Assembly (NCBI GenBank): GCA_030430245.1 | Contig: JAUIFY010000001.1 | Coordinates: 12,878-76,877 of the forward strand | Direction of reading: 5' to 3' | Source: a bacterium | GTDB taxonomy: Bacteria > Desulfobacterota > Binatia > UBA12015 | Length of the DNA stretch: 64,000 nt | In this document: piece after piece, positions 5,308 through 45,341 of the stretch | Position numbering within the stretch: the stretch's first letter is position 1 | Layout of the letters: each line of letters starts with the position of its first letter | Program-made: the position numbers and the translations under genes | The notes under the pieces: model-generated | The model's input: only the letters and a program-made list of their open reading frames with translations | What the model was told of the DNA's origin: nothing | Databases searched by the model: none

Positions 5308-5501
5308 CCGACGGTATCCGTTCGTTCGGTTCTCGCGGCCGTCGCTCCGTGCGGGGCGGCGGCCGCGTTGCGTTCGGGCGGGGATTCTTCGCGGCCCGCA
5401 GCCCCGCGTCGCGTCGTCGGTACCTCGCGGGCGGCTCTTTCGCCCGTCGGGGTGCCTGGTAACCTCTGCCGAGGTCACGCACTGGGGTTCGCCGCGGCAC
5501 G

Positions 5502-6902: not shown

Positions 6903-6914
6903 GAAGATCCTCTC

Positions 6915-9874: not shown

Positions 9875-9904
9875 GGTCTCGCACCGGGTCGACGGCACGA
9901 CGAC

Positions 9905-12844: not shown

Positions 12845-12847
12845 GCC

Positions 12848-23553: not shown

Positions 23554-24100
23554 CCTCGCGACCCCTCGCCGGCTCCGGGGCCGAGTCCCGCGCCGTCGCG
23601 TGGGGAGAGAGAACGGTAGCCGAGCTCGCCGCCGAACGTGACCGGGGAGGCGTAGCCCTGGGTGGAGATGGTCGTCCTGCTTCGCCGAGAGCCGGCCGAC
23701 ACCGGCCCGAGGTGCCCATTCCTCGGCCAGTGCCCATCGCCTGGTCGCCCTCGACGTCCGCGGGACACAAAAAGGGTCCGTCGGCGCGAGGGACCGCGGT
23801 CGGCACGACGGTTGCTCTCCTTCCGCGGCGCAGCGTTCCTCGGAGCGCCGTGACCCTTCAGGCTCGACGGAAAGGAGGCAGATAGAAGCGGTTGGTCGTC
23901 CGGGCGGCGCGGTGGTGCACGCACGCCGCGCCGCCCGCCCTCTCGGCCGGTCGCTCCGCGCGCCCGTTTTCGTGGCAGGCCCGCGCCGTTGCTGCCTCGT
24001 TCTTGCACAGTACCTTCCGACTGCCCCGCGAAGAGTGAGTCGTCCTCTCGGGAAGTCCGCAGGTGTGGCCTGGTACGCTCGTTGCGACTACGCTCGACCC

Positions 24101-25600
24101 ATGGACCGGGATTACACCTTCACGAACTACGACCCGGGCGAGTTCTACGACGAGCTCTTCGACGCCGACGGGAACGCTCGCTCCGACGTCGGCCCGCTCG
24201 TCGAGCAGATCGACGCCCTCGCGCCGGGCGAGCTCGCCGAGCGGCAGCAGTCGATCGAGCGAGCGCTCCTGCGGATGGGCATCACCTTCGCCGTCTACGG
24301 GGACGAAGAGGGAACCGACAAGATCTTCCCGTTCGACATCGTTCCCCGGATCGTCTCCGGTCAGGAGTGGCTCCGGGTCGAAGCCGGCCTCGGGCAGCGG
24401 ATCCGGGCTCTGAACCACTTCATCGGAGACGTCTACGGCGCGCAGAACATCGTCCGGGACGGCGTGTTGCCCGGCGAGATCCTGAGCGAGGCGAAATCGT
24501 TCCGGGAGGTCTGTCGAGGTCTGGAGCCGCCGCGGGGGATCTGGTGCCACGTGACCGGGACGGACCTGGTGCGCGACGCCGACGGCACACTGTACGTGCT
24601 CGAGGACAACCTCCGTTGCCCGTCCGGAGTCTCCTACGTTCTCCAGAACCGTCTCCTCATGAAGCGCAGCTTCCCGGAGATCTTCCAGGCGTCGCAGGTT
24701 CGGCCGGTGATCGACTATCCCCACCGCTTGTACCGCACCCTCCAGTACCTGGCGCCCGATCACATCGACGACGCGACGATCGTCGTGCTCACGCCGGGCA
24801 TCTACAACTCTGCCTACTACGAGCACTCCTTCCTCGCGCAGCAGATGGGCGTGGAGCTCGTCGAGGGCCGGGACCTCGTGGTGAAGGACGGCTTCGTCTT
24901 CATGCAGACCACCGATGGTCTGCAGCGGGTCGACGTCATCTACCGGAGGATCGACGACGACTTCATCGATCCCGAGGCGTTTCGCGAGGACTCGATGCTC
25001 GGTGTGCCCGGGCTGATGAACGTCTACCGCCAGGGTCGTGTCGCGCTGGCCAACGCGCCCGGCACGGGCATCGCCGACGACAAGGTCATCTACGCGTTCG
25101 TTCCCGACATGATTCGCTACTACCTCGGCGAGGATCCGATCCTGCCGAACGTTCCGACGTACGTCTGCGCGCGCGAAGACGACCGCCGCTACGTTCTCGA
25201 TCATCTGGGCGAGCTGGTCGTGAAGCCCGCCAACGAGGCGGGCGGGTACGGAATGCTCATCGGCCCCCACTCCTCCGAGGGGGAGCGGGCCGAGTTCGCG
25301 GACCGCATCCGCGCGAATCCGCGCAACTACATCGCGCAGCCGACGCTCTCCCTTTCCCGGGTGCCGACGCTCGTCGGCGGTCACTTCGAGGGACGCCACG
25401 TCGACCTGCGACCGTACATCCTCTTCGGAGAAGACACCTGGGTTCTGCCGGGAGGCCTCACGCGTGTCGCGTTGCGAAAGGGGTCCCTGGTCGTCAACTC
25501 CTCGCAGGGGGGCGGAAGCAAGGACACGTGGGTGCTGGCGCTCTCGCCCGGCGAGGCGGCGGCCGCGGACGACCATCTCTCCGAGCGAACGGAGGCGTGA
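24101..25600 (+). CDS. Circularly permuted ATP-grasp type 2 protein
   Basis: [21 protein letters not shown]... has the CP_ATPgrasp_2 (DUF404/407) signature run ...[15 protein letters not shown]...VVKP...GGYGM. Confidence 0.8.
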
Positions 25601-25603
25601 GCC

Positions 25604-26581
25604 ATGCTGTCCCGGGTCGCGAACTCGATCTACTGGATGGCCCGCTACGTGGAGCGGGCCGAGAACCTGGCTCGCTTCGTCGACGTGAACCTGAGCCTCA
25701 TTCTGGACCAGCCGGCCGGGACCGAGCCGCAATGGCAGCCTCTCGTCGCCGCCACCGGAGAGAGCAAGGCCTTCGCCGAGCGCTACGGTGCGGCGACGCC
25801 GGAGAGCGTGGTGCAGTTTCTGACGTTCGATCGCAAGTATCCGAGCTCGATGCTCGCGAGTCTGGAGGTGGCACGGGAGAACGCCAGAACGGTTCGTGAG
25901 GCCATCTCCTCCGAAGCCTGGGAGCAGCTGAACGACTTCTACCACTTCGTTCGCGCGGCGGAGCGCGACGTGAAGCGAGGTGACGCGCTCTCGCAATTCT
26001 ATCAGTCGGTGAAGCAGCACAGCCATCTCTTCTCGGGCGTCCTCGACGCGACGATGTCTCACGGCGAGGGGTGGCACTTCGCGAATCTCGGGCGACTGCT
26101 CGAGCGCGCGGACATGACGAGCCGAATCCTCGACGTGAAGTACTTCACCCTCCTGCCCCGTATCGAGGCCGTGGGGACCACCGTGGACGACCTCCAGTGG
26201 TCGGCCGTTCTGCGGTCGGTCAGCGGATTCGAGGTCTACCGCAAGCGCCATCATGCGATTACCATCGAGCGCATCGTGGGCTTCCTCGTACTCGACAATG
26301 AATTCCCCCGTGCCATCCATGCGTGCGTGACCCGCGCGGACGAGTCGCTCCACCGGATCTCGGGCAGTCCGGTGGGCTCGTACCGGAACGCGGCAGAGCA
26401 GAGCTTGGGCCGCCTTCGCTCCGAGCTCGACTACTCCGACGTCGCGACGATCGTCGACATGGGCTTGCACGAGTTCATCGACGGCCTGCAGACGCGGCTG
26501 AACCGCATCGACGAGAACGTTCGCTCGACGTTCTTCGCCCCGCGCCCCGTCGCGGTGCAAACGCAGCGCGCCTGGAGCTGA
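25604..26581 (+). CDS. Alpha-E domain protein (DUF403)
   Basis: MLSRVANSIYWMARYVERAENLARFVDVN... is the canonical alpha-E N-terminus. It lies 4 nt after the ATP-grasp stop. Confidence 0.8.
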   Translation: MLSRVANSIYWMARYVERAENLARFVDVNLSLILDQPAGTEPQWQPLVAATGESKAFAERYGAATPESVVQFLTFDRKYPSSMLASLEVARENARTVREAISSEAWEQLNDFYHFVRAAERDVKRGDALSQFYQSVKQHSHLFSGVLDATMSHGEGWHFANLGRLLERADMTSRILDVKYFTLLPRIEAVGTTVDDLQWSAVLRSVSGFEVYRKRHHAITIERIVGFLVLDNEFPRAIHACVTRADESLHRISGSPVGSYRNAAEQSLGRLRSELDYSDVATIVDMGLHEFIDGLQTRLNRIDENVRSTFFAPRPVAVQTQRAWS

Positions 26582-26586
26582 GCGTC

Positions 26587-29500
26587 GTGGCCATTCGCGT
26601 CGCGCTGCACCATCGAACGTCCTATCGGTACGACCGGCCGGTGAGGCTCGGCCCGCAGGTGGTGCGCCTGCGTCCCGCACCTCATTGCCGCACACCGGTC
26701 CCGAGCTACTCGCTGGTGGTTCGTCCTTCCGAGCACTTCGTGAACTGGCAGCAGGACCCGCACGGGAACTACCTCGCGCGGCTGGTCTTCCCCGAGCCGG
26801 CGGAGGAGTTCTCGGTCGAGGTCGACCTCACGGCCGACCTCACCGTCCACAATCCGTTCGATTTCTTCCTGGAGGAGTCGGCGCGGCACGTTCCGTTCGG
26901 CTACGACGAGAGCGTCGCGATGGACCTGCGTCCGTTCCTCGAGGCCGAGGCGCCGGGCCCGCTCCTGCGGCAGTTCCTCGCGTCGATCGACCTCTCGACG
27001 CCGACGACCACGGTGGATTTCCTGGTGGACCTGAATCGACGGGTCTCCGAGGAGGTCCGCTACCTCGTACGCATGGAGCCGGGCGTGCAGACCCCGGAAG
27101 AGACGCTGCGCATCGGGTCGGGCTCGTGCCGCGACTCGGGCTGGCTCCTCGTGCAGGTGCTCCGGCATCTCGGTCTCGCCGCGCGGTTCGTGTCCGGCTA
27201 TCTGATCCAGCTCGTCGCCGATCAGAAATCGCTCGACGGTCCGTCGGGCCCGCCCGCCGATTTCACCGATCTGCACGCGTGGGCGGAGGTGTACCTGCCC
27301 GGAGCCGGCTGGGTCGGACTCGACCCGACGTCGGGCCTGCTCGCGGGGGAGGGGCATCTCCCGCTCGCCTGCACGCCGGTGCCGGGGAGCGCCGCCCCGA
27401 TCTCGGGTGCGGTCGACCGCGCCGAGGTGGAGTTCGAGTTCGACATGAAGGTCGAGCGGATCCACGAGGATCCGCGCGTGACGAAGCCCTACACCGAGGA
27501 GCAATGGGCCGAGATCGACCGGCTCGGTCGCGCGGTCGACGAGCGGCTCGAGCGCGGCGGTGTTCGTCTGACGATGGGGGGCGAGCCGACCTTCGTCTCG
27601 ATCGACGACTTCGACGGAGAAGAGTGGACGATCGCCGCGCTGGGCCCCGAGAAGCTGCGTCTCGCCCAGCGCCTCCTGAAGCGGTTGAAGCGGCGGTTCG
27701 CGACGGGTGGGGTTCTGCAGAACGCGCAGGGGAAGTGGTATCCCGGAGAGCCGCTGCCGCGTTGGGCGCTCGGCTGCTACTGGCGTCGCGATGGCGTGCC
27801 GCTGTGGCAGGACGACGATCTCTTCGCCGACGAGGAGGCGCCGGGACGATTCGACGCGTCTCACGCGGAGCGGCTCGCGGCGGAGATCGCGGCGCGACTG
27901 TCGGTCGATGATCGCTTCCTCGTGCCGGCGTTCGAGGACGCCGTCTATCACCTCTGGGTCGAGAACCGACTCCCGACCGACATCGACGTGGGCGACGAGC
28001 GCCTGGCCGACGACAGCGAGCGTCGTCGGCTGGCCCGGATCCTGGACCAGGGCCTCCATCGCCCGGTGGGGCACGTCTTGCCGCTGCGGCGCGCGTGGTG
28101 GAGCGAGGGCGACCCGTGGCAGTCCGGTGCGTGGCCGGTGCGCGCCGAGCGGATGTTTCTCGTTCCGGGCGATTCCCCCATGGGACTCCGGCTCCCGCTG
28201 GATTCGCTGCCGTTCGCGACGCGCGCCCACGAGCCGTATCCGCAGGACCCGATGGCGCCGCGTTCCGCGCTCTCCCCGCGGCCCGAGGCCCGACGTCCCC
28301 TGGAGCAGGCCCGCGACTGGAGCGGAGACGACGACCGCGACGAGGACGACGCGGTCGCGCGCCGCTCCCGACCCGAGCCCTCGGACGAGATCCGCACCGG
28401 TCTGTGCGTGGAGCCCCGGGAGGGGCGCCTCAACGTGTTCCTGCCGCCGGTGGATCGATTGGAGGACTACGTCGACCTGGTGCAGGCGGTCGAGGGCGCG
28501 GCGCGCGCCTTGTCGATGCCGGTGGCCCTCGAGGGGTACCCGCCCCCGAGCGACTCCCGGCTGCGCCGGCTCCAGCTGACCCCGGATCCCGGCGTCATCG
28601 AGGTGAACATCCAGCCGTCGTCGTCGTGGCAGGAGCTGATCGACACGACGGAGGGCTTGTACGAAGACGCGAGGCTGAGCCGCCTCACGACGGAGAAGTT
28701 CGACCTCGACGGGAGTCACACGGGCACCGGAGGCGGGAATCACGTCGTCCTCGGCGCCGAGACGACCGACGAGAGCCCGTTCCTGCGCCGACCGCGCCTC
28801 CTGCGAAGCCTGCTCGGGTTCTGGCAGAACCACCCGTCGCTCTCCTATCTCTTCAGCGGCAAGTTCGTGGGGCCGACGAGTCAGGCGCCGCGCGTCGACG
28901 AGGGACGCACGGATGCGCTGTACGAGTTGGAGGTCGCGTTCGCGGAGATCGCGGCGCTGCCCGAGGACAGCCCTCCGTGGAAGGTGGACCGGATCTTCCG
29001 GCACCTGCTCACGGACCTGACGGGCAACACGCATCGCGCCGAGTTCAGCATCGACAAGCTGTACTCTCCGGACCAGTCGACCGGTCGTCTCGGCCTTCTG
29101 GAGATGCGCGGCTTCGAGATGCCGCCCCACGCGCGGATGAGCCTGACGCAGCAGCTTCTCGTCCGCTCGCTCGTCGCCCGGTTCTGGGACGAGCCCTACG
29201 ACACGCCTCCCACGGACTGGGGGACGGCCCTCCACGATCGGTTCCTGCTCCCCCACTACGCCTGGCGGGATTTCTGCAACGTGCTCGAGGATCTCGGTCG
29301 CGCGGGCTTCCCCTTCGAGCCCGAGTGGTTCCACTCTCACTTCGAGTTCCGCTTCCCCGTTCTGGGGCGCGTCTCGTACGACGACGTCGAGCTCGAGCTG
29401 CGTTCCGCCATCGAACCGTGGTACGTTCTCGGCGAAGAGCCGGTCGGAGGTGCTACGGCGCGGTTCGTCGACTCTTCGGTGGAGAGACTGCAGGTGAGAG

Positions 29501-29904
29501 TGAGCGGGTTCTCGGGCGAGCGCTTCGTGCTCGCGTGCAACGGTCGGCGCGTGCCGCTCGCGACGACCGGGGCGTCGGGGGAGCACGTCGCCGGCGTGCG
29601 CTACCGGGCGTGGGCGCCGCCGAGCTGCCTCCATCCGACGATTCCCCGCCACGCGCCGTTGCGGTTCGATCTCGTCGATACCTGGAGCGGTCGCGTCGCG
29701 ACCGGTGCGGAGTATCACGTCGGACACCCGGGCGGGCGTCACTTCGACACGTTCCCGGTCAACGCGAACGAGGCCGAGGGGCGCCGTTCGGCGCGCTTCG
29801 TTCCCACCGTCCACTCGGCCGGGACGGTCGAGATCCCTCCGGCCGAGTACAATCCCAAATTCCCGACGACGCTGGATCTCCGCCGCCCGACGAGGGCCGC
29901 GTGA
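26587..29904 (+). CDS. Large transglutaminase-family protein (DUF2126 type: N-terminal bacterial-transglutaminase region plus transglutaminase-like core)
   Basis: GTG start. (M)VAIRVALHHRTSYRYDRPV is the typical N-terminus. RIGSGSCRDSGWLLVQVLRHLGLAARFVSGY has the transglutaminase-core Cys. 1105 aa. Confidence 0.8.
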   Translation: MAIRVALHHRTSYRYDRPVRLGPQVVRLRPAPHCRTPVPSYSLVVRPSEHFVNWQQDPHGNYLARLVFPEPAEEFSVEVDLTADLTVHNPFDFFLEESARHVPFGYDESVAMDLRPFLEAEAPGPLLRQFLASIDLSTPTTTVDFLVDLNRRVSEEVRYLVRMEPGVQTPEETLRIGSGSCRDSGWLLVQVLRHLGLAARFVSGYLIQLVADQKSLDGPSGPPADFTDLHAWAEVYLPGAGWVGLDPTSGLLAGEGHLPLACTPVPGSAAPISGAVDRAEVEFEFDMKVERIHEDPRVTKPYTEEQWAEIDRLGRAVDERLERGGVRLTMGGEPTFVSIDDFDGEEWTIAALGPEKLRLAQRLLKRLKRRFATGGVLQNAQGKWYPGEPLPRWALGCYWRRDGVPLWQDDDLFADEEAPGRFDASHAERLAAEIAARLSVDDRFLVPAFEDAVYHLWVENRLPTDIDVGDERLADDSERRRLARILDQGLHRPVGHVLPLRRAWWSEGDPWQSGAWPVRAERMFLVPGDSPMGLRLPLDSLPFATRAHEPYPQDPMAPRSALSPRPEARRPLEQARDWSGDDDRDEDDAVARRSRPEPSDEIRTGLCVEPREGRLNVFLPPVDRLEDYVDLVQAVEGAARALSMPVALEGYPPPSDSRLRRLQLTPDPGVIEVNIQPSSSWQELIDTTEGLYEDARLSRLTTEKFDLDGSHTGTGGGNHVVLGAETTDESPFLRRPRLLRSLLGFWQNHPSLSYLFSGKFVGPTSQAPRVDEGRTDALYELEVAFAEIAALPEDSPPWKVDRIFRHLLTDLTGNTHRAEFSIDKLYSPDQSTGRLGLLEMRGFEMPPHARMSLTQQLLVRSLVARFWDEPYDTPPTDWGTALHDRFLLPHYAWRDFCNVLEDLGRAGFPFEPEWFHSHFEFRFPVLGRVSYDDVELELRSAIEPWYVLGEEPVGGATARFVDSSVERLQVRVSGFSGERFVLACNGRRVPLATTGASGEHVAGVRYRAWAPPSCLHPTIPRHAPLRFDLVDTWSGRVATGAEYHVGHPGGRHFDTFPVNANEAEGRRSARFVPTVHSAGTVEIPPAEYNPKFPTTLDLRRPTRAA

Positions 29905-32453
29905 GCGAAGCGAAGCCGGCGCCCGAAGAGCCCGGTTCGTCTCTGTCCGGCTACCGGCCCGCCCGGCCCTCGTCGGACGAAGCGATCGATCCCGGAGGAG
30001 GACTGCGACCGCATTGGCGCGAGCTGTTCTCGAAGCTGGAAGCCATCGGCGACCTGGAGCTGCAGCGTCGCTGGGAGCACGCACAGCAGGATGCGGCCTC
30101 CGACGGGGTGACCTTCAACCCACACGACGCGGATGGCGAGGGCGCGCGCCCCTGGATCCTGGATGCGATCCCCTTCCCGTTGCCGGAGCGGAGCTGGAGG
30201 GTTCTTTCCGAAGGGTTGGCCCAGCGAGCGATGCTGCTCGACCACGTGCTCCGCGACCTGCTCGGACCGCAGGTTCTGCTCCGCGAGAAGGTGCTCCCCC
30301 CCGACGTCCTGTTCGGAAGCCCCGCCTACCATCCGTCGTTTCACGGTCTGCGGCCGGCCGGGCGCCGCCATCTCGATCTCTACGCGGCCGACGTGGCGCG
30401 TGGCTCCAACGAGGGCTGGTACGTCACGGGCGACCGCACGCGAACGGTTTCCGGACTCGGCTACGCGCTCGAGAATCGGGTCATCGCGTCGCGCATGCTG
30501 TCGGCCGTCTTCCGCCGGTCCCACGTCCGCCGCCTGGCGGAGTTCTTCTCCGCGCTCAAGGAGATGATCCGCGCGCAGGCGCCACGCTCGCAGGACAACC
30601 CCCGCGTCGTCCTGTGGACCCAGGGCCCGACCGGGACCCGATACTTCGAGGACGCCTACCTCGCGCGATACCTGGGCTACACGTTGGTCGAGGGCGGCGA
30701 TCTGGCGGTTCGTGCGAACCGGCTCCACCTGAAGACGTTGGGAGGCCTGCAGCCGGTCGAGGTGGTGCTCCGCCGCCTGGACGACGGGCTGTGCGACCCG
30801 GTGGAGCTGCGTGCCGACTCGCAGGCGGGCGTCTCGGGTCTGCTCGAGGTGCTCCGAGCGCGCAACGTCGCCGTGGTGAACTCGCCGGGATCGAGCCTGG
30901 CGGAGGCCCCGATCCTGCTGCCGTTCCTGCGGGCCGCCTGCCAGCGGCTCCTCGACGCGGACCTGAAGCTGCCCTCGATCGCGACGTGGTGGTGTGGCCA
31001 GAAGAAGGAGCGCACGTACGTGCTCGAGCATCTGGACGACTTGATCGTGCGCCCCGCGTTCTCGCCGGCGACGGCGTCGGTCTGGCGTCCGGATCGCATG
31101 ACGAGCGACGAGCGCGCCGATCTGGCTGCCGCCATCGAAGCCCGGCCCGCGAGCTTCGTCGCGCAGCAGGCCCCGGTACGGTCCACGACGCCGGTCTGGA
31201 ACCCGCAGGGCGTGGAGTCCTGGTACCTCGCGTTGCGCACGTTCCTCGTGGCACGGGACGACGCGTACGTCCGCATGCCCGGGGGCCTCGCGCGCGTCGC
31301 TCCCGACGCGGCGGCGCTCGATCATACGATGAGCTCCGGCGAGCGGAGTCAGGACGTCTGGATCCTGAGCGAAGGGCCGGTCGACACGGCGAGCCTGCTG
31401 TCGCCGCCGGGAGAGACGATCGCGCTGCGGCGGGGCGGTGCCGAGCTGCCGAGCCGCGTCGCGGACAATCTCTTCTGGCTGGGGAGAGCCGTGGAGGGGG
31501 CCGAGGGATGTGCGCGGCTTCTGCGGACGCTCCTCTCGACGTCGGCGGGTGAGGCGCCGGAGGCGCCGGAGCTCCCGTATCTCCTCTCGGCACTCGCCCA
31601 GATCGAGCAGATCGACAAGGACGACTTCGCCGCGCTCGGTCCGGCCGACCTGACGCGGATCGCGGCCGGCGTCGCGTCGGCCCTCTTCGACGAGGGCCGC
31701 TCGGGAAGTCTCCGCTCCCGCATCCTCGAGGCGCAGCGGGTCGCCTCGCTGGTGCGAGATCGGGTGTCGATGGACGCCTGGCGCATCATTCAGCGTCTGG
31801 AGGAGGTGAGCCGCAAGCCGCGGTGGAGAGTGGGGAGCTACGAGTCCTTGCGGACGGTCGAGCTCGTCCTGCAGGAGCTCGCGGCGTTCGCCGGAATGGT
31901 CGGCGAGAGCATGACCCGAGCTCCGTCGTGGCGCTTCCTGGACCTCGGCCGTCGCATCGCGCGCGCTTGGCACACGGCGCGCCTGCTGTCCGCGACTCTG
32001 GTCCCGGTCGTGAAGGACGAGCGGGCCGTGTTCGAGGCGGTCCTCGCGACCGCGGACAGCCTGATGACGTACCGGTCGCGCTATCTCGCGACTCTGCAGG
32101 CGGCGCCCGTGATCGACCTCCTGCTCACCGACGATACGAACCCGCGCTCGATCGGACATCAGCTGGCGGTCGTCGTCGACCACGTGGGAGAGCTCCCACG
32201 AGACGACACGAAGGCGACCCTCGGTCCGGAGCAGCGCGTCGCCCTGTCGCTGCAGAACGCGGTGCGTCTGGCCGACGCGGTCGAGATGAGTCGAATCGAG
32301 GGCTCTCCGGGACGGAGAGCCGGCTTGGAGCGATTGCTGCAGCGCCTGGCCGAGCAGCTTCCGCGGCTCTCCGACGCGCTCTCGAGCCGGTTCCTCACGC
32401 ACGCCGGTCTCCCGCGCCACCTGGCGTCCGCTCTGGAGCCGCCGGGCTCATGA
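29901..32453 (+). CDS. Fused circularly permuted ATP-grasp type 2 plus alpha-E domain protein
   Basis: GTG start with GTGA overlap. The N-terminal half parallels gene 24101 (LFGSPAYHPSFHGL..., VVNSPGSSLAEAPIL). The C-terminal half parallels alpha-E (NLFWLGRAVEGAEGCARLL). 850 aa. Confidence 0.8.
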   Translation: MSEAKPAPEEPGSSLSGYRPARPSSDEAIDPGGGLRPHWRELFSKLEAIGDLELQRRWEHAQQDAASDGVTFNPHDADGEGARPWILDAIPFPLPERSWRVLSEGLAQRAMLLDHVLRDLLGPQVLLREKVLPPDVLFGSPAYHPSFHGLRPAGRRHLDLYAADVARGSNEGWYVTGDRTRTVSGLGYALENRVIASRMLSAVFRRSHVRRLAEFFSALKEMIRAQAPRSQDNPRVVLWTQGPTGTRYFEDAYLARYLGYTLVEGGDLAVRANRLHLKTLGGLQPVEVVLRRLDDGLCDPVELRADSQAGVSGLLEVLRARNVAVVNSPGSSLAEAPILLPFLRAACQRLLDADLKLPSIATWWCGQKKERTYVLEHLDDLIVRPAFSPATASVWRPDRMTSDERADLAAAIEARPASFVAQQAPVRSTTPVWNPQGVESWYLALRTFLVARDDAYVRMPGGLARVAPDAAALDHTMSSGERSQDVWILSEGPVDTASLLSPPGETIALRRGGAELPSRVADNLFWLGRAVEGAEGCARLLRTLLSTSAGEAPEAPELPYLLSALAQIEQIDKDDFAALGPADLTRIAAGVASALFDEGRSGSLRSRILEAQRVASLVRDRVSMDAWRIIQRLEEVSRKPRWRVGSYESLRTVELVLQELAAFAGMVGESMTRAPSWRFLDLGRRIARAWHTARLLSATLVPVVKDERAVFEAVLATADSLMTYRSRYLATLQAAPVIDLLLTDDTNPRSIGHQLAVVVDHVGELPRDDTKATLGPEQRVALSLQNAVRLADAVEMSRIEGSPGRRAGLERLLQRLAEQLPRLSDALSSRFLTHAGLPRHLASALEPPGS

Positions 32454-33343
32454 AGTACCGAATCCGCCACGTCTCGAGCTACCACTACTCCGCGCCGGTG
32501 AGCGTCTGCCACAACTTCTTGATGTTGACGCCACGCGAGGGCGGTCGAGTGCACAGCCTCTCGCACCGTCTCGTCATTCGACCCACACCTCTCTTCTCGT
32601 CTCGGCGGACCGACTCGTTCGGCAACACGGTGCACTCGTTCGCGATCGAGGAGAACCACCGGCAGCTGGCGGTGACCGCGACGAGCCACGTCGACGTCGC
32701 CGAAGCGCGGCCGCCCGAGAAGACACCACCCTGGGAGACGGTGGTGGGTGGGGTCGTCGCGCAGACCGATCCAGATTGGCTCGAGGCCTGTCGCTTCGCG
32801 TTCGATTCCCCGCGGATCTCGCGCGCGCCCGAGTTCGCCGACTACGCGATCGCCTCCTTCGTCCCGGAGCGTCCGATCCTCGACGCGGCGTTCGATCTCA
32901 CGAAGCGCATCCACGAGGACTTCGAGTACGACAAGGCGGCGACGTCCGTCGGTACCCCGACGCGGGAGGCCTTCGACATCCGAAAGGGCGTCTGTCAGGA
33001 CTTTGCGCACGTCCAGATCTCGTGCCTGCGCTCGCTCGGCGTTCCGGCCCGATACGTGAGTGGCTACCTGCGGACGGTCTCCCGCCCCGGGCAACCGCGC
33101 ATCGTCGGGGCCGACCAGTCTCACGCGTGGCTGGCGGTCTACTGCGGTGCCGCGGGCTGGGTCGAGGTCGACCCGACCAATGCCTGCTTGAGCTCGCAGG
33201 ACCACATCCCCATCGCCTGGGGCCGGGACTACGACGATGTGGTGCCGGTGAAGGGCGTCGTGCTCGGAGGTGGGGATCACCAGCTCTCGGTCTCGGTCGA
33301 CGTCGAGTCGGAGGACGACGCCTCCGAGGCCGCTCGGCCGTAG
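32450..33343 (+). CDS. Transglutaminase-like protein (N-terminal bacterial-transglutaminase region plus transglutaminase core)
   Basis: ATGA overlap with the upstream gene. MKYRIRHVSSYHYSAPV... and GVCQDFAHVQISCLRSLGVPARYVSGY carry the transglutaminase-core Cys. Confidence 0.8.
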   Translation: MKYRIRHVSSYHYSAPVSVCHNFLMLTPREGGRVHSLSHRLVIRPTPLFSSRRTDSFGNTVHSFAIEENHRQLAVTATSHVDVAEARPPEKTPPWETVVGGVVAQTDPDWLEACRFAFDSPRISRAPEFADYAIASFVPERPILDAAFDLTKRIHEDFEYDKAATSVGTPTREAFDIRKGVCQDFAHVQISCLRSLGVPARYVSGYLRTVSRPGQPRIVGADQSHAWLAVYCGAAGWVEVDPTNACLSSQDHIPIAWGRDYDDVVPVKGVVLGGGDHQLSVSVDVESEDDASEAARP

Positions 33344-33414: not shown

Positions 33415-33573
33415 ATGGGTCGATCCCTGCAGAGCTTGATCGTTTTCGTGTTGGTGCTTCTCGGGCTGAACTGGTTTCTCGGCGAGATGAACTACGGCCT
33501 CCACATCTCGATCGTCGGCAGCATCGTGCTGACGCTCGTGGTGTCGATGATCATGAACGGGCTGAATCGCTGA
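33415..33573 (+). CDS. Possible small hydrophobic membrane peptide (52 aa)
   Basis: MGRSLQSLIVFVLVLLGLNWFLGEMNYGLHISIVGSIVLTLVVSMIMNGLNR. It overlaps the convergent oxidoreductase stop by 23 nt and has no clear RBS. Confidence 0.2.
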   Translation: MGRSLQSLIVFVLVLLGLNWFLGEMNYGLHISIVGSIVLTLVVSMIMNGLNR

Positions 33574-34591
33574 CGTCGTCCGGCCGGACCCGCACGACCG
33601 ACTTGCCGAAATTCCTGCCCTCGAAGAGGTGGCAGAAGCCGATCCCGGCTCGGTCGACTCCTTCGTGCACGTACTCGACGCTGCGAAGCTCTCCCGCGTC
33701 GAGCCAACCGGCCAGCGCGGCGCGTGCCTCGGGGTAGCGGTCGATCTGCATGTGCGTCATGAACCCCTGGAGGCGCGCCCCCTTCAGGACCAGCTCGAAC
33801 AGGTTGGATGGCCCGGGCAGGGGTTCTTCCGCGTTGTAGGCGGTGACCGCGCCGCAGAAGGGGATGCGCGCGCCTTCGTTGATGTGGGCGAGGACGTGCT
33901 CGAGGAGCGGGCCGCCGACGTTGTCGAAGTAGACGTCGATGCCGTCGGGGCAGGCCGCGCGCAGCTCCTCGGCCAGTCGGGCGGACCGATGGTGGACGGC
34001 GGCGTCGTAGCCGAGCTCCGTGCGAAGCCGCTCGCACTTCTCGTTCGAGCCCGCGAAGCCCACCGTGCGCGCTCCGTGGATCTTTGCGATCTGGCCCGCG
34101 ACGGAGCCCACCGCCCCGCCGGCCGCGCTGATCACGACGGTCTCGCCCGGCTGGGGCGTCCCGATGTCGGTCAGGCCGAAGTAGGCCGACATGCCCGTGT
34201 CGCCCAGGACGCCGAGGTGGTAGCTCAGCGGATACGGCCAGCTCGCGTCCAGGCGGACGATGAAGTCGCCCCCGTCGCTGATCGAGTACTCCTCCCACGC
34301 GAGGCGGGCCATCAGGAGCTCTCCCTCCCGGTAGTCGGACCGTCTCGATTGCTTGACGCGCCCGAGGGTGAGCCCCATCACGGGTTGGTCGAGCGGCATG
34401 GCGGGGAGGACGTCGTCGCCGCTCCCCTCGTTCATCCAGTTCCGGAATCCGGCATCGAGCGAGAGGTAGAGATTCTCGATGAGCATCTCGCCGTTGCGGA
34501 TCTCGCGCACCTCGGCCGTCGCGACGCGGAAGTCGCTCTCGCGGGGGAGGCCCGCCGGTCGGCGGGCGAGGAGGACTCGAGTGTTCTTCAT
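33551..34591 (-). CDS. NADP-dependent oxidoreductase, zinc-independent MDR family (alkenal/prostaglandin reductase YncB-like)
   Basis: VVISAAGGAVGSVAGQIAKIHGARTVG is the Rossmann motif. Overall MDR architecture. 346 aa. Confidence 0.8.
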   Translation of the reverse strand: MKNTRVLLARRPAGLPRESDFRVATAEVREIRNGEMLIENLYLSLDAGFRNWMNEGSGDDVLPAMPLDQPVMGLTLGRVKQSRRSDYREGELLMARLAWEEYSISDGGDFIVRLDASWPYPLSYHLGVLGDTGMSAYFGLTDIGTPQPGETVVISAAGGAVGSVAGQIAKIHGARTVGFAGSNEKCERLRTELGYDAAVHHRSARLAEELRAACPDGIDVYFDNVGGPLLEHVLAHINEGARIPFCGAVTAYNAEEPLPGPSNLFELVLKGARLQGFMTHMQIDRYPEARAALAGWLDAGELRSVEYVHEGVDRAGIGFCHLFEGRNFGKSVVRVRPDDVSDSARS

Positions 34592-34730
34592 GGCTCTCGC
34601 GGCGTGGAATCGTCGGATTGACGCCAGGCGCCCGACGTATACCCTCGCCCGTCATGAATCCAGGTACCGCGGCGCGACGCGGTGCGGCGGACCGTGCGCG
34701 CGACCGCCAAGACCGGGGTAGGAAGAGACA

Positions 34731-34982
34731 TTGCCACGAAAGCTCCACATGTTGACCGGTGCCGTCTACGAGACGGACGGTGCGGGCGTCGTTCGCGTCA
34801 CCACCCGGCAGGGGAGAGTCGGTCGCTTCGACTCCCACGGCGCGTGGATCGACGGCGAGCTTCGCGAGGCCGACCCCCACCTGTGCCTCTGGGTGGGAGG
34901 CCGCCAACTGCCGGAGGGCAAGGCGGCGAGCTTCAAGGACCTCCCGCTCAAGACCGGTCGCGAGGAGGGAGCCGACGCATGA
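34731..34982 (+). CDS. Small conserved-looking protein (83 aa) translationally coupled to the Rieske oxygenase
   Basis: MPRKLHMLTGAVYETDGAGVVRVTTRQGRVGRFDSHGAWIDGELREADPHLCLWVGGRQL... is not Arg-rich junk. Its stop overlaps the Rieske ATG (ATGA). The true start may be the internal Met at residue 7. Confidence 0.45.
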   Translation: MPRKLHMLTGAVYETDGAGVVRVTTRQGRVGRFDSHGAWIDGELREADPHLCLWVGGRQLPEGKAASFKDLPLKTGREEGADA

Positions 34983-36319
34983 CCGCCCCGCGCCATCCCG
35001 GAGCGATCACCTACCAGGAGCTGCTCGACACCGACACGCGCGAGGTGCCCCCGGTCCTCCGGATCGACTCGCGCATCGACGACGCCCCGGATCGCGTCCC
35101 GGTCGAGCGATACGTCTCTCGCGAGTTCTTCGAGCTCGAGATCGAGAAGGTGTGGCGCCGCGTCTGGCAGGTGGCCTGTCGGGAGGAGGACGTGCCCGAC
35201 GTGGGCGACCACCTGGTCTACGACATCGCGGGGATGTCGATCCTCGTCGTTCGGTCGAAGCCGGACGAGATCAAGGCGTACTGGAACGCGTGTCTCCACC
35301 GTGGGCGGATGCTGCGCGACCAGCGCGGACGCTCCAGCGACCTTCGGTGCCCGTTCCACGGTTGGTGCTGGCGCCTCGACGGCAGCCTGAAGGAGATCCC
35401 GGCCGGGTGGGACTTTCCGCACGTCGATGCGGCGGAGAACTCGCTGCCCGAGGTTCGGGTCGACACCTGGGGCGGGTTCGTCTTCGTGAACCTCGATCCG
35501 AGCTGCGGTCCCCTGGCGGATCATCTCGGTGACCTCCCGAAGCACTTCGAGCGCTGGCCGCTGGAGAAGCGCTACAAGGCGGCGCACGTGGCGAAGATCC
35601 TGCGATGCAACTGGAAGGTCGCGCAGGAGGCGTTCATGGAGGCGTACCACGTCGTGGGGACGCACCCGCAGCTCATGTGCAGCCTCGGCGACTCGAACAC
35701 CCAGAACGACGTCTTCCCGACGTTCTCGCGCTCCCTGACGCCCAACGGGACGCCCAGTCCGCATCTTCCCGAGCGACCGAGCGAGCAGGCGATGGCCGAC
35801 AACGTGCTCGATCTCGACTACGAGGCGCCGTCCCGCGTGCCCGTGCCGGAGGGGGCGACGGCGCGCGAGACGCTGGCCGAGGTGCGCCGGGCCGCCCTTC
35901 GAGGCGTGCTGAACGGAGGAGCCGACGAGCTCTGCGACGCGGAGCTGATGGACAGCTTCTACTACACGCTCTTCCCGAATCTGCACCCGTGGGGCGCGTA
36001 CAATCGCATCGTCTACCGGTTCCGGCCGCACGGCACCGACCATCGGCAGAGCATCATGGAGGTGATGTTCCTCGAGCCGCTGCCCGACGGACCCCGGCCG
36101 AAGGCGGCGCCCATCCACTGGCTCGGCCCGGACGACGACTGGGTGGATGCCGACGAGCTCGGGATGCTCGCGCGGGTCTTCAATCAAGACAACTTCAACC
36201 TGCCGCGTCAGCAGCGGGGGCTCGAGACGACGCGGAAGACGCACGTGCAGCTCGCGCACTACAACGAGTCGCGGCTTCGTCACTTCCACCGCCTCCTGGG
36301 CGAGTGGATGGAGCGCTGA
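34979..36319 (+). CDS. Rieske [2Fe-2S] non-heme iron ring-hydroxylating oxygenase, alpha-subunit only (KshA-like class)
   Basis: Rieske CLHRGRML...CPFHGWCW (CxH...CxxH). No adjacent beta subunit. 446 aa. Confidence 0.8.
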   Translation: MTAPRHPGAITYQELLDTDTREVPPVLRIDSRIDDAPDRVPVERYVSREFFELEIEKVWRRVWQVACREEDVPDVGDHLVYDIAGMSILVVRSKPDEIKAYWNACLHRGRMLRDQRGRSSDLRCPFHGWCWRLDGSLKEIPAGWDFPHVDAAENSLPEVRVDTWGGFVFVNLDPSCGPLADHLGDLPKHFERWPLEKRYKAAHVAKILRCNWKVAQEAFMEAYHVVGTHPQLMCSLGDSNTQNDVFPTFSRSLTPNGTPSPHLPERPSEQAMADNVLDLDYEAPSRVPVPEGATARETLAEVRRAALRGVLNGGADELCDAELMDSFYYTLFPNLHPWGAYNRIVYRFRPHGTDHRQSIMEVMFLEPLPDGPRPKAAPIHWLGPDDDWVDADELGMLARVFNQDNFNLPRQQRGLETTRKTHVQLAHYNESRLRHFHRLLGEWMER

Positions 36320-36337
36320 GCGGATCCGCGGCCGCGC

Positions 36338-37408
36338 TCAGTCCAGAAGGTCGAGCGCGCCGGTCTCGTGGATGGTCTCGGCCGAGCGTGAGGCGAGGGC
36401 GCGGACCATGTTCGCGCCCCGCTCGTTCGCGTGGTCGAGCGTTCCCGCGATCACGACGGCGAACGTGAAGAGGTAGAGGACCGATGCGCGGTAGTCCTTC
36501 CAGCACTGGTCGAAGTCGTAACCGCGGACGCCGCGCGCGCAGATCCCGTCGTAGTAGCGCCGGACGAGCGCGTCCTGGTGGCGGCGTCGCTCGTCGGATC
36601 GCAGGCTCTGGCTCATGAAGTAGCCGAGGTCGTGCGGCCCGCAGGATTTCGAGATCCCCTGCCAGTCGAACATCGCGACCCCGTCGGGGTCGCCGTCGAC
36701 GTCGAAGAAGAGATTGTCGAGGCGGAAGTCGCCGTGCGCGACCGTGAGGACGCCGGCGCACATCCGGGCCAGACAGGCGCCGGTCTGCGGTCCGATCTTC
36801 GCGTACTGCTCGGCCAGGCCCGACGGAAGCACGTCCCCGAACTTCTCCAGAAACACCGGCCACCCGGCGGCGAATCCCTGGCTCATCCCGCCGACCTGCG
36901 TCGGGTTGTCGTGCACGGGGATCCAGGCGAGATCGGGATGGTCCGTCTTGCCCCACCACGTCGCGTGGAGCTCGGTCATCTGGTCGATCGCACTCCGGGC
37001 GTCCTTCAGGCCGCAGCCTGCGAGTTGGTCGCCGAAGCGGCAGGTCGACATGTCCTCGAGGAGCAGGATGAAGTCGCTGTTGTCCGGGTTCAGCTCGGCG
37101 CAGTAGGGCCTGGGCGAACGGGCCGGCGTTCGCCCAGCGAGCGTCTGGTAGAAACGGACCTCGCGCCCGTACATGTCGAACGTCTCCGCGACGACGCGAT
37201 TGCCCGGCGTCTCGCTCGGAAACTTCGCGATCAGCGTTGCCGGTCCCGCGTCGGGACGCTCGTACGTGAGGGCGATTCGCTTCGAGGTGCCGATCATGCC
37301 GGCCCCCTCGCCGAGGGATTCGATCTCGAACGCGGTGACGGGCGCGCCGAGAACGCCCGAGAGCCAGTCCGCGGTCAGGTCTTCGGGTCGGCTCGGGAAC
37401 GCCGTCAT
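36338..37408 (-). CDS. Phosphotransferase-family protein (APH/choline-kinase-like kinase fold)
   Basis: HGDFRLDNLFF is the Brenner HxDxxxxN motif. AMFDWQ is the DFG-equivalent. Confidence 0.7.
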   Translation of the reverse strand: MTAFPSRPEDLTADWLSGVLGAPVTAFEIESLGEGAGMIGTSKRIALTYERPDAGPATLIAKFPSETPGNRVVAETFDMYGREVRFYQTLAGRTPARSPRPYCAELNPDNSDFILLLEDMSTCRFGDQLAGCGLKDARSAIDQMTELHATWWGKTDHPDLAWIPVHDNPTQVGGMSQGFAAGWPVFLEKFGDVLPSGLAEQYAKIGPQTGACLARMCAGVLTVAHGDFRLDNLFFDVDGDPDGVAMFDWQGISKSCGPHDLGYFMSQSLRSDERRRHQDALVRRYYDGICARGVRGYDFDQCWKDYRASVLYLFTFAVVIAGTLDHANERGANMVRALASRSAETIHETGALDLLD

Positions 37409-38205
37409 GGGATGGACTCCTCGTCCTCGAAGCCGTACTCGGCCTTGAGGTCGGCCACCTTGAGGACCTGGCCGGTGCGCGACATCAGGTTCGGGTCGGT
37501 CGCGAGCGCGACGACGGCGCGTCCGCTGAGCAACGGCGACTGCGCGCGCGTCGGATCGATCTTCGCCTTCCCTTGCGCGACCTGCTCCAGGATGAACTCG
37601 GTCTTGACCGCGCTCGGCCAGATCGAGACGGCGGCGACGCCGTGGCTCTCGAGCTCGACCGCCATGTCCTGGGCCAGGCGGTCGACGCCGATCTTGCCGA
37701 CGCCGTAGGCCACGCTGTGGGCGTAGCCGGCTGCGCCGCGTGAAGAGACGTTCACGATGAGCGCGCCCTTGCGCTCGAGCATCATGGGCGCGGCGTGGTG
37801 GCTCGCGACGTAGTGCGCGCGGAGCCCGATCCCCACCATGTCGTCCCAGATCGAGATCGGGTGCTTCCAGAACTCGCCTTCCCAGACCGGCTCGTCGGGG
37901 ACCTTGAAGACGTTGTTCACCAGGATGTCGAGCCCGTCCTGCTCGGAGCGGATGCGCTCGAAGAGAGCCTCGATCTGGCCATCGTCGCCGTGGTCGACCT
38001 GCACCGCGATGCCCTTGCCTCCGCGACGCGTCACCTCCTCGGCGGTGGCGCCGATGGTGCCGGGCAGGGGCGCGCTCCCTTCCCGCACGGTTCGGCCGGT
38101 GACGTAGACCGTCGCACCCGCCTCACCGAGGCCCATCGCGATGCCCTTGCCGATGCCCCGGCTCGCGCCCGTCACGACGCAGATCTTGCCCGTCAAGCTA
38201 CTCAT
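37405..38205 (-). CDS. SDR-family oxidoreductase
   Basis: Internal Met of track ORF 37405..38436. MSSLTGKICVVTGASRGIGKG is TGxxxGxG. YGVGK is YxxxK. ATGA overlap with the APH-like gene. Confidence 0.8.
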   Translation of the reverse strand: MSSLTGKICVVTGASRGIGKGIAMGLGEAGATVYVTGRTVREGSAPLPGTIGATAEEVTRRGGKGIAVQVDHGDDGQIEALFERIRSEQDGLDILVNNVFKVPDEPVWEGEFWKHPISIWDDMVGIGLRAHYVASHHAAPMMLERKGALIVNVSSRGAAGYAHSVAYGVGKIGVDRLAQDMAVELESHGVAAVSIWPSAVKTEFILEQVAQGKAKIDPTRAQSPLLSGRAVVALATDPNLMSRTGQVLKVADLKAEYGFEDEESIP

Positions 38206-38267
38206 CGGTGCACCTCTTACACATCTGGCTTCGAGAAGGGTATAGGAACGCCCGGAAGGAGACCGAA

Positions 38268-39047
38268 ATGCGACTCGAAGGCAAAGTCGCCGCCGTGACC
38301 GGCGGTAGCCGAAGCATCGGCCGGGCGATCGTCGAGGCGTTCTTGCGCGAAGGCGCGCGCGTGTGCCTGAACGGTCGCAGTGAAGAGAAGGGCGCTCGAG
38401 CCCTGGCCGAGATCGGTGCCGGCGACCGGGCCGCATTCGTCGCGGGCGACGTGCGAAGCTCGGCGGACATCGAGCGCCTCGTCGAGACGACCGTCTCGAA
38501 GTTCGGGCGGATCGACATCATGGTCAACAACGCCGGCGGGATCACCGAGCCCGCACCGGTGATCGCTCTCAGCGACGACGCGTGGGCCAACGACGTGCAG
38601 TGGAACCTGACGAGCGTGTTCTATGGTACGAAGCACGCTCTCAAGCACATGGTTCCTCAGAAGTTCGGCCGCATCATCAACATCTCGTCCGTCGAGGGGA
38701 AGATGGGGGTGCCGGGCATGGCGGGCTACGCGGCGTCGAAGCACGGGGTGAACGGGCTCACGAAGGCCACGGCGGGCGAGGTGGGCCGCGAAGGCGTCAC
38801 GGTGAACGCGATCTGCCCCGGGCTGATCCTGACCGACGCCGTCACCGAGGGCGGTCCCCAGACGGCCGAGGCCATGGGGATGACGTTCGAGGACATGGTC
38901 GAGAACGTCTTCAAGGCCAAGACGATGACGGGCGAGCTGAACACGGTCGAGCAGGTCGCGGAGCTGGCGGTGCTGCTCGCCAGCGATCTCGGAGCGGGCT
39001 TCACCGGAGCCCAGCTCTCGGTGGACGGGGGAATCGCACCGTACTGA
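38268..39047 (+). CDS. SDR-family oxidoreductase (3-oxoacyl-ACP reductase-like)
   Basis: MRLEGKVAAVTGGSRSIGRA...NNAG...YAASK. ggagaccgaa RBS. It is the internal start of track ORF 38208..39047. Confidence 0.8.
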   Translation: MRLEGKVAAVTGGSRSIGRAIVEAFLREGARVCLNGRSEEKGARALAEIGAGDRAAFVAGDVRSSADIERLVETTVSKFGRIDIMVNNAGGITEPAPVIALSDDAWANDVQWNLTSVFYGTKHALKHMVPQKFGRIINISSVEGKMGVPGMAGYAASKHGVNGLTKATAGEVGREGVTVNAICPGLILTDAVTEGGPQTAEAMGMTFEDMVENVFKAKTMTGELNTVEQVAELAVLLASDLGAGFTGAQLSVDGGIAPY

Positions 39048-44520: not shown

Positions 44521-45294
44521 CTATGCGCAGTAGCCGCCATCGACGGGGATCTCGGCGCCCGTGATGAAGCTCGATTCGTCGGATGCGAGGAAGACGGCCA
44601 CGGCGGCGATCTCCTCTGGTTGGCCGATCCGTCCCATCGGATGACGAGATCCGAACGCGGCGATACCGGCGTCTCGGGTCGGGCTCGCCGAAAGATACCG
44701 GTCGAGAATCGGTGTCTCGACGACGCCGGGGCAGATCGCGTTGCAGCGGATGTTCCACTTCTCTTCGGCGCAGCGAAGAGCGACCGATCGCGTCAGCGCG
44801 AGTACCGCCGCTTTGCTCGCGCAGTAGGCCGGGTACTTCGAGCCAGCTCGGATCGCCAGCGACGAGGCGATGTTGACGATCGTGCCGCCGCCCGCCCGGC
44901 GGAGCGCGTCCACGCCGTGCTTGCAGCCGAGGAAGACGCCGTCGGCGTTCACGCGCATCACGTGGCTCCAGTGGTCCAGCGTCGCCTCGTCGATGGTTGC
45001 AGGTACGCTGATGCCGGCGCAGTTGAGCACCGTGTCGACCTTGCCGAACTTCGCTTCCGCGGCAGCGACCGCCTGGTGCCAGTCGCTCTCCGAGGTCACG
45101 TCGAGGTGGACCGCCAAGGCCGCCGTGCCGATCTCGTTCGCGAGCGAGGCGGTCACGGTGTCCTGCAGGTCTCCGATCGCGACCTTCGCGCCCGCCGCGG
45201 CCATGGCGCGACAGCTCGCCGCGCCGATCCCGGAGGCTCCCCCGGTGACGAGCGCTACTTTGCCGTCCAGGCGCGGAGACGGGGCGTGGGTCAT
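44521..45294 (-). CDS. SDR-family oxidoreductase
   Basis: GKVALVTGGASGIGAA...NCAG...YCASK. Confidence 0.85.
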   Translation of the reverse strand: MTHAPSPRLDGKVALVTGGASGIGAASCRAMAAAGAKVAIGDLQDTVTASLANEIGTAALAVHLDVTSESDWHQAVAAAEAKFGKVDTVLNCAGISVPATIDEATLDHWSHVMRVNADGVFLGCKHGVDALRRAGGGTIVNIASSLAIRAGSKYPAYCASKAAVLALTRSVALRCAEEKWNIRCNAICPGVVETPILDRYLSASPTRDAGIAAFGSRHPMGRIGQPEEIAAVAVFLASDESSFITGAEIPVDGGYCA

Positions 45295-45321
45295 GCGGTC
45301 GGTTTCCTCCTCGGGGGTTGT

Positions 45322-45341
45322 GCGGTCTAGCTAGTGACCGC
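45322..45341. promoter_or_regulatory. Imperfect palindrome GCGGTC-tagctagt-GACCGC (with self-complementary CTAGCTAG core) in the divergent promoter region
   Basis: Seen between the SDR operon start (45294, minus) and the acyl-CoA synthetase start (45397, plus). Confidence 0.2.

Follow-up and report, generated by a model that had tools for sequence, protein, structure and literature searches.

An extended ATP-grasp/Alpha-E/transglutaminase operon with a second, motif-less ATP-grasp in a 64-kb stretch of a Binatia genome

The DNA analysed here, which we call the window, is a stretch of 64 kb from contig JAUIFY010000001.1 of a bacterium of the Binatia lineage, and our subject is a set of five co-directional open reading frames (ORFs), designated A to E, that lies on its forward strand at positions 24101-33343. 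Start, stop and frame are valid in all five. Each gene has a guanine plus cytosine (GC) fraction of 0.87-0.89 at third codon positions and of 0.41-0.51 at second codon positions (GC2), as expected for real genes in a sequence of 68% GC, and NCBI protein records for C and D agree with our ORFs in length (1105 and 850 aa) and in sequence (100% identity). The genes and their parts, with the activities predicted for them, are as follows.

24101..25600, + strand: gene A, 499 aa; circularly permuted ATP-grasp ligase in a protein of its own, with catalytic activity predicted
25604..26581, + strand: gene B, 325 aa; Alpha-E helical protein, presumed partner of A
26587..29904, + strand: gene C, whole, 1105 aa
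26587..27411, + strand: gene C, N-terminal part; transglutaminase-like Cys-His-Asp domain
27415..29904, + strand: gene C, C-terminal part; DUF2126 domain, predicted to be a carboxylate-amine ligase resembling glutamine synthetase
29901..32453, + strand: gene D, whole, 850 aa; ATP-grasp and Alpha-E fusion with a GTG start inside a GTGA overlap with C
29901..31415, + strand: gene D, N-terminal half; ATP-grasp fold without the canonical ATP/Mg2+ motifs, predicted pseudo-ligase
31416..32453, + strand: gene D, C-terminal half; fused Alpha-E domain
32450..33343, + strand: gene E, 297 aa; small transglutaminase-like Cys-His-Asp protein whose start lies in an ATGA overlap with D

The domain content places these genes in a known family of operons. 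A is matched by Pfam CP_ATPgrasp_2/1 (E 1e-169) and B by Alpha-E (E 4e-104), and the two adjoin as a CP_ATPgrasp gene (PF04174/PF14403) and an Alpha-E gene (PF04168) with 3 nt between them. D carries CP_ATPgrasp at residues 93-467 and Alpha-E at residues 516-832 of a single chain; Pfam domains and coordinates together confirm what an earlier note on this DNA had claimed, that separate ATP-grasp and Alpha-E proteins stand beside an 850-aa fusion of the same two domains. E is matched by Bact_transglu_N and Transglut_core, and C by the same two domains followed by DUF2126 (1280 bits; described by Pfam as a "putative amidoligase"). Hence, where the earlier note saw one large and one small transglutaminase, both are indeed present, but the large one is a fusion in which the transglutaminase domain is joined N-terminally to a DUF2126 region of ~830 aa that makes up three quarters of C, the arrangement found in the extended form of these operons. 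No further copies of any of the five genes were found elsewhere in the window.

The paralogy of the two modules, also proposed in that note, is borne out at the protein level. A aligns with the N-terminal half of D at 31% identity over 486 aa (E 2e-75) without large gaps, B aligns with the C-terminal half at 25% over 246 aa (E 2e-16), and E aligns with the N-terminus of C at 27% over 282 aa (E 3e-22). Between the copies no DNA-level repeat was found beyond short chance matches and a common AGWV-DPT catalytic-Asp motif, and it is this, together with the 25-31% protein identity, that makes the duplication ancient. Although similar domain content occurs twice within 9 kb, as a recent tandem duplication with redundant copies and one of them decaying would leave it, that explanation is refuted, and we give it practically no weight, because the identity is low, the DNA repeat is missing, and in a neighbor-joining tree the split and fused ATP-grasps form reciprocally monophyletic families, cleanly apart and spanning several phyla. 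The earlier note had suggested a phylogeny to ask whether fused and split forms are ancient subfamilies in their own right, and the tree shows that they are: between A and the A-type proteins of other phyla (Proteobacteria, Bacteroidota) identity is 51-60%, versus ~30% between A and the D encoded in its own operon. Nor is D decaying, since 78 columns are invariant in an alignment of 79 sequences; its 850-aa ORF is intact and it has thousands of homologs.

The decisive difference between the two families lies in the active-site motifs. In a canonical active ATP-grasp enzyme a Lys and a Gly-rich loop hold the ATP phosphates, and an Asp and a Glu-x-Asn motif ligand Mg2+. All of these are present in A, where the residues invariant in its family are D155, E168-x-N170, K328, K375, G381-G382-Y-G384, and D435-x-R437; D155 and E168-x-N170 correspond to the Mg2+ ligands and are spaced, from D to E, as is usual in the superfamily, and K375 with G381-G382-Y-G384 gives the phosphate-binding Lys and the Gly-rich loop. 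We compared the ATP-grasp domains of 46 A-type and 85 D-type sequences (Planctomycetota) together with 6 other A-type and 6 proteobacterial D-type sequences; 11 A-type sequences were re-aligned. The D of the window has G177, R179, R384, and A390-T-A-S393 at the canonical positions. Across its family the position of E168 is G, S, A, or N, that of N170 is R (H in one copy), that of K375 is R or variable with the Gly-rich loop gone, that of K328 is mostly Pro, and that of D435 is Ala or Val. The loss extends to 85 of 85 Planctomycetota and 6 of 6 proteobacterial D-type copies, among them those of Enterobacter, Azospirillum, Ralstonia, Burkholderia, and Sinorhizobium sp. M103, whereas the motifs are kept in every A-type copy, including those of Enterobacter, Sinorhizobium, Hymenobacter, and Acidithiobacillus and the protein of PDB entry 3N6X. 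One A-type gene, in a metagenome-assembled genome of the Planctomycetota (L080, 3995-5434), has an in-frame stop and is either a pseudogene or an assembly error.

These observations bear directly on a two-step ligation machine, the reading that the earlier note had preferred to redundancy along with a heteromeric one, in which A and D would both be active and add different residues, each with its own Alpha-E domain and transglutaminase. Such a machine would account for two non-identical ATP-grasp and Alpha-E sets in one operon, linked ligases often act in succession (PMC4431377), and D is strongly conserved and well folded in its predicted model. However, the E-x-N motif for Mg2+ is missing from the D family, as are the Gly-rich loop and the Asp of D-x-R, the Lys ahead of the loop is variable, and Pro mostly stands at the K328 position, while A-type proteins are intact; DUF2126 in C already provides a second (predicted) ligase. 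Because the motifs are lost in every lineage sampled, we consider a machine with two working ATP-grasps quite improbable, and the reading of D as the second of them is not supported. D appears instead to be an ancient, catalytically dead paralog; judged by its residues, it probably retains the ATP-grasp fold but not ATP-dependent chemistry. The Pfam text, following Iyer et al. 2009, reportedly names "active and inactive" versions of the circularly permuted ATP-grasp, and a second copy without catalytic residues, as in D, counts as a mark of the extended form of the system.

Structural comparison agrees with a retained fold. The AlphaFold2 model of D has a mean predicted local distance difference test score (pLDDT) of 86 and a predicted template modeling score of 0.74, and its N-terminal half matches 3N6X in Foldseek with a template modeling (TM) score of 0.88, followed by eukaryotic glutathione synthetases, GspS, and YgiC/YjfC. 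A is itself a close homolog of 3N6X (E 1.8e-168), which has the same VLEDN...PSG and GSGGYG motifs; this entry (Mfla_0391, annotated by structural genomics as a "putative glutathionylspermidine synthase") provides fold information only. For the Alpha-E half of D Foldseek returned no match, and a sequence search of the PDB with B found nothing significant. Two ER motifs are conserved in both Alpha-E families and both are intact in B (E17-R18 and E167-R168). In the D of the window they are altered, with VEGAEG for VERAEG (31473-31520, residues ~525-540) and RIARAW for RIERAW (31941-31982, residues ~681-694), although E and R are retained at these positions in ~95% or more of the D family. Since the altered motifs are shared with the 77%-identical D of the closest relative (locus L088, described below), they are a stable trait of the lineage and not an error.

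The two transglutaminase-like proteins of the operon both carry a Cys-His-Asp triad. That of C (C181/H230/D246) is invariant in 65 homologs, and that of E comprises C182, H225, and D241. The best structural match for both domains is PDB 3ISR, a putative cysteine protease of Cytophaga hutchinsonii that likewise gives fold information only: E matches it by sequence (E 3e-10) and the transglutaminase domain of C by Foldseek (E 8e-13, TM 0.71), while a sequence search of the PDB with C found nothing significant. DUF2126 is very highly conserved, being 60-74% identical among the Planctomycetota homologs listed, and is dense in invariant Glu, Arg, His, and Asp. With the C model (pLDDT 77), Foldseek gives many matches of this region to glutamine synthetases, all of them weak (probability 0.8-0.9, TM 0.27-0.29, ~280 columns), an outcome that is weakly supportive of a glutamine-synthetase-like fold. 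Published profile searches assign DUF2126 and the C family to the carboxylate-amine ligases (PMC2588565), and the family, typified by M. tuberculosis Rv2566, has been described as a transglutaminase joined to a carboxylate-amine/ammonia ligase (PMC2588565). Papers on DUF2126 under that name were not found in the literature searched.

The five genes are packed as one transcriptional unit. The spacers are 3 nt between A and B and 5 nt between B and C, and C/D and D/E overlap as GTGA at 29901-29904 and ATGA at 32450-32453; the earlier note had given the two overlaps correctly, while its "4 nt" and "6 nt" for the first two junctions are differences of coordinates. Shine-Dalgarno-like GGAG, GGAGG, or GAGG sequences precede B, C, D, and E, the one for B being a GGAGG ~9 nt 5' of the gene. 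The junctions of L088 are likewise 3-5-nt spacers or 4-nt overlaps, equivalent junctions range from -4 to +224 nt among relatives, and such close junctions and 4-nt overlaps are ordinary operon traits. A scan for sigma-70 promoters across the operon returned zero promoter-like sites, and a terminator scan returned one terminator-like site, within D, which is fewer than the 3.2 expected by chance. An inverted repeat spans the C stop and D start (29884-29906 and 29957-29979, 23-nt arms, 83% complementary), and the RNA of 29884-29979 folds with a z of -2.36, 2 of 200 shuffles being equally stable. In L088 the corresponding stretch shows no excess structure (z +0.58), which led us to discard the repeat as a candidate for a conserved element of coupling.

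How the genes travel was examined in a scan of GTDB species genomes, in which the best 80 loci were all from Planctomycetota or unclassified; other phyla were reached through records of plasmids and secondary replicons. The nearest homologs of D are from Planctomycetota, at up to 77% identity. The closest relative found is L088, which has A-B-C-D-E at 4222-13455 with 74-90% protein identity. Its flanking genes differ from those of the window, and the same five genes in the same order among other neighbours indicate that the block behaves as a unit. Architectures were typed by tblastn with the window proteins, and the 42 Planctomycetota loci with enough flanking sequence divide as follows.

A-B-C-D-E: 21/42
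C-D-E-A-B: 6/42
D-E: 7/42
C-D-E: 4/42
other arrangements: 4/42

Among the typed loci A-B adjacency is universal and D-E adjacency almost so. The order A-B-C-D-E recurs in Planctomicrobium, on an IncFII plasmid of Enterobacter roggenkampii (where RefSeq labels the products "circularly permuted type 2 ATP-grasp", "alpha-E domain-containing", and "transglutaminase family"), and on a replicon of Burkholderia cenocepacia. The view of the earlier note that the copies are non-redundant is supported, as is its placing of both in one operon, a co-transcribed unit whose order is conserved across phyla. Ralstonia and Azospirillum have C-D-E without A-B, Sinorhizobium pSymB and a Hymenobacter plasmid have A-B and a small transglutaminase (A-B-E) alone, and an Acidithiobacillus caldus megaplasmid (L087, 1238-9474) has Anbu-C-A-B without D-E, its first gene being a proteasome-like protein (PF00227) of the Anbu type. 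In this last locus the transglutaminase part of C (2040-2861) and the DUF2126 part (4298-6805) lie ~1.4 kb apart and only the latter is annotated, which suggests a disrupted or rearranged C gene. The idea that each module has its own transglutaminase is too simple for this pattern, given that C goes with D-E in Ralstonia, Azospirillum, and several Planctomycetota, goes with A-B in Acidithiobacillus, and precedes both in the C-D-E-A-B order. The finding of A-B, C, and D-E apart from one another across genomes makes the system modular, and the window is its fullest common form.

Modularity raises the question of whether the locus holds independent systems side by side, A-B next to C-D-E or A-B-C next to D-E, acting on different substrates. 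C-D-E, A-B-E, Anbu-C-A-B, and D-E (the last in 7 of the 42 loci) each occur separately, and A and B evolve far more slowly than the rest: they are 89-90% identical to their L088 orthologs versus 74-77% for C, D, and E, with the same ranking against more distant relatives. On the other hand, 29 of the 42 Planctomycetota loci with enough flanking sequence have A-B no more than 10 kb from D, Gamma- and Betaproteobacteria have the five genes in the very same order, and the window and L088 share their 3-5-nt spacers and 4-nt overlaps, with no internal promoter-like site. We regard independence as unlikely, though it is the strongest of the competing explanations, and favor one operon whose products act in a common pathway.

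The 547-nt region 5' of A offers a view of how this operon may be controlled. It holds two of the only three matches in the window, at one mismatch, to the sigma-54 pattern TGGCAC-N5-TTGC, both on the operon strand.

23801..23815, + strand: distal sigma-54-like -24/-12 box, CGGCACGACGGTTGC; 300 nt 5' of the ATG of A, 1 mismatch
24071..24085, + strand: proximal sigma-54-like box, TGGTACGCTCGTTGC; 30 nt 5' of the ATG of A, 1 mismatch

Both are GG-N10-GC elements that fit the pattern GG(C/T)ACG-N4-TTGC, and both are kept in position and sequence in L088 within intergenic DNA that otherwise aligns poorly: the distal box there is CGGCACGTGCGTTGC at -302 (3920-3934), versus -300 in the window, and the proximal box is TGGTACGCCGGTTGC at -29 (4193-4207), versus -30. 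Boxes of this kind are enriched upstream of A, occurring in 6 of ~50 related regions versus ~0.7 expected. This suggests, as far as sequence patterns can, that the operon is under a sigma-54-type promoter and the control of nitrogen limitation, and the literature on related operons points the same way: P. putida PP_2685-2688 is up 16-22-fold on nitrate versus ammonium (PMC8050072), the domains of the operon co-vary with urea metabolism in marine metagenomes, and an RpoN site has been predicted upstream of a CP_ATPgrasp gene in Bradyrhizobium. The proximal box is too near the ATG for a normal leader, which makes its role uncertain; a second promoter is one option and an operator repeat another, and the two boxes together could likewise be a repeated operator. 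Between them lies a conserved island (23866-23960) with the sequence GGAAAGGAGGC ... GGTTGG ... GCCGCGC-GCCCGC, one frame of which reads RAAR-C--AA-PA in both the window and L088. An ORF at 23892-24038 was considered as a tag or leader peptide and rejected, its GC2 of 0.69 being that of non-coding DNA and its similarity to L088 fading past ~15 codons, and the island more probably acts as an element in DNA or RNA than encodes a small protein. Rfam found nothing in the 5' region (E <= 1) or, at gathering thresholds, in the whole window, and the region therefore matches no known riboswitch.

Several known systems help to place the operon. The core ATP-grasp/Alpha-E/transglutaminase operon, with or without Anbu, was predicted by Iyer et al. 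2009, as cited in PMC6376114 and PMC5666114, to be a system of peptide synthesis or modification, and the Yersinia ATP-grasp releases phosphate from ATP (PMC6376114, PMC5666114, PMC3597751). The Anbu-type operons of Proteobacteria, Bacteroidota, and Cyanobacteria (for example Yersinia bercovieri, P. aeruginosa, and P. putida PP_2685-2688) have the core trio in the same order as the window; they share with it the possible link to nitrogen limitation, and it is with their A-type proteins that A has its 51-60% identity. Unlike them, the window has no Anbu gene, and it adds the DUF2126 fusion, the motif-less ATP-grasp and Alpha-E paralog, and a second, small transglutaminase. No paper later than 2019 that resolves the function of the Anbu operon was found in the literature searched.

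The Anbu connection is the main attraction of a pupylation-like scheme of protein tagging and degradation, in which the ligases would add a peptide tag to target proteins, while the thiol peptidases would either take the tag off again or pass the targets to an Anbu-type protease. Related operons include this proteasome homolog, the PF00227 gene of Acidithiobacillus stands beside C-A-B, and the carboxylate-amine ligase superfamily includes, according to the literature, the Pup ligase PafA. A tblastn search of the 64-kb window with the L087 PF00227 protein, however, found no Anbu-like or proteasome gene (E > 0.4), and neither a convincing small conserved tag ORF nor a proteasome or depupylase partner is found in the window; the sole conserved upstream stretch that could pass for a tag is the non-coding 23892-24038 described above. 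Iyer et al. 2008 also favored glutathione-like small-peptide synthesis over protein conjugation for the C family (PMC2588565). We give tagging poor odds, about the same as the machine with two active ATP-grasps.

By locus numbering, M. tuberculosis carries C-D-E-like and A-B-like sets at two distant loci, an orthology that is a lead only. Among their members, Rv2567 and Rv2411c are presumably ATP-grasp proteins. The gene identities at these loci, Rv2566-Rv2567(-Rv2569c) and Rv2411c-Rv2409c, come in part from PMC2588565, bioRxiv 10.64898/2026.04.15.718621, and PMC11081392; Rv2567 and Rv2411c are treated in the literature as uncharacterised candidate enzymes with ATP-binding domains, and neither enzyme made gamma-aminobutyric acid (GABA)-trehalose, while Rv2566 is the published type example of the C-equivalent family (PMC2588565). 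For Rv2569c, conserved-domain analysis points to a cysteine protease; the protein is reported as a secreted serine-type protease that cleaves E-cadherin, and secretion is hard to square with a role in a cytoplasmic operon.

A chemical analogy is offered by E. coli GspSA (PDB 2IO7/2IO8), in which an ATP-grasp ligase is coupled to a papain-like thiol amidase able to take the ligase product apart again, and by glutathione synthesis, in which a carboxylate-amine ligase acts first and an ATP-grasp enzyme second. The D model, and A through its homology to 3N6X, superposes on GspS, YgiC/YjfC, and the eukaryotic glutathione synthetases; the make-and-break pairing of GspSA resembles that of C and of A-B with E, and both classes of glutathione ligase are present in the operon. 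This is an analogy and not membership: identity to the enzymes superposed is 12-14%, with no detectable sequence similarity beyond the fold, the peptidases here are transglutaminase-like and not of the CHAP type, and Alpha-E has no counterpart there.

We now put forward an explanation for the locus as a whole, to which we assign a probability of about 0.6: the five genes form one operon of an extended ATP-grasp/Alpha-E/transglutaminase system in which A and DUF2126 are the ligases, D is a non-catalytic adaptor, and thiol enzymes cut. What the scheme says of chemistry, of regulation, and of contacts between A and B and between D and C or E is proposed from gene structure, domains, paralogy, conservation of the cluster, the motif loss in D, and the triads of C and E. 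Specifically, A would be an ATP-dependent carboxylate-amine ligase of the 3N6X family, akin to the glutathione and glutathionylspermidine synthetases, working with B, an interaction suggested by D, where both domains form one chain (a Rosetta-stone argument). C would join a Cys-His-Asp thiol peptidase or transamidase to DUF2126 as a second ligase, and E would be a second thiol peptidase or transamidase. We propose that A-B and DUF2126 in turn form ATP-dependent amide bonds, which are probably gamma-glutamyl in type; the substrate would be a metabolite or small peptide, or possibly the side chain of a protein, and the two Cys-His-Asp enzymes would afterwards trim, transfer, or recycle the product. 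D, the paralog of A and B in one chain, would most likely assist C, E, or both without catalysis of its own, as an adaptor or by binding substrate, and a sigma-54-type promoter would probably drive expression at nitrogen limitation. A heteromeric assembly, the other reading of the earlier note, is plausible.

A more specific version of this scheme can be stated, which we hold tentatively and consider rather unlikely in its full form. In it, D would be a pseudo-ligase that has persisted across phyla only for its capacity to bind substrate or product: as an adaptor it would pass a gamma-glutamyl-type peptide or amide from A-B and DUF2126 to the two thiol peptidases, and the operon, under sigma-54 control, would make and break a metabolite or peptide modification of nitrogen stress that is yet to be discovered.

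Several points weigh against the proposed explanation. The literature gives no substrate or product for any member of the system, and published Yersinia pull-downs yielded no stable complexes among the operon proteins. D is predicted to be inactive from its sequence motifs and by analogy to ATP-grasp enzymes that have been characterised, and a non-canonical nucleotide site is possible. The glutamine-synthetase-like fold of DUF2126 is weakly backed (Foldseek E 0.05-0.2). The modules stand apart in many genomes, so that obligate cooperation of all five proteins is not established. As for regulation, the majority of related loci are without a sigma-54-like box, and the proximal box of the window ends only ~16 nt from the ATG of A.

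The cluster is an ordinary member of a system that was described computationally in 2008-2009 and is biochemically uncharacterised, and the window adds an instance only. The system itself is among the most widespread bacterial clusters without solved chemistry, it has members in M. tuberculosis, and it is the genomic context of Anbu, a proposed ancestor-like proteasome homolog. Three points narrow the search for its product: in all phyla sampled the second ATP-grasp is without its motifs, the second ligase is likely DUF2126, and A-B, C, and D-E behave as modules that can be shuffled.

The surroundings of the operon appear to be independent of it. Upstream lie a flavin adenine dinucleotide monooxygenase gene and a pectinacetylesterase-like gene, both unrelated to the cluster. 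Downstream, at 33551-38436, are a convergent quinone oxidoreductase, the alpha subunit of a Rieske ring-hydroxylating oxygenase, an EcKL/APH-like kinase, and a short-chain dehydrogenase/reductase, a xenobiotic-type set apparently unrelated to the operon. Further downstream, the sole tRNA of the window, a tRNA-Ser (anticodon CGA) at 44685-44772, lies within a minus-strand ORF call with high GC at third codon positions (44521-45330), and its presence there makes the extent of that ORF, which comes from a crude ORF screen, doubtful.

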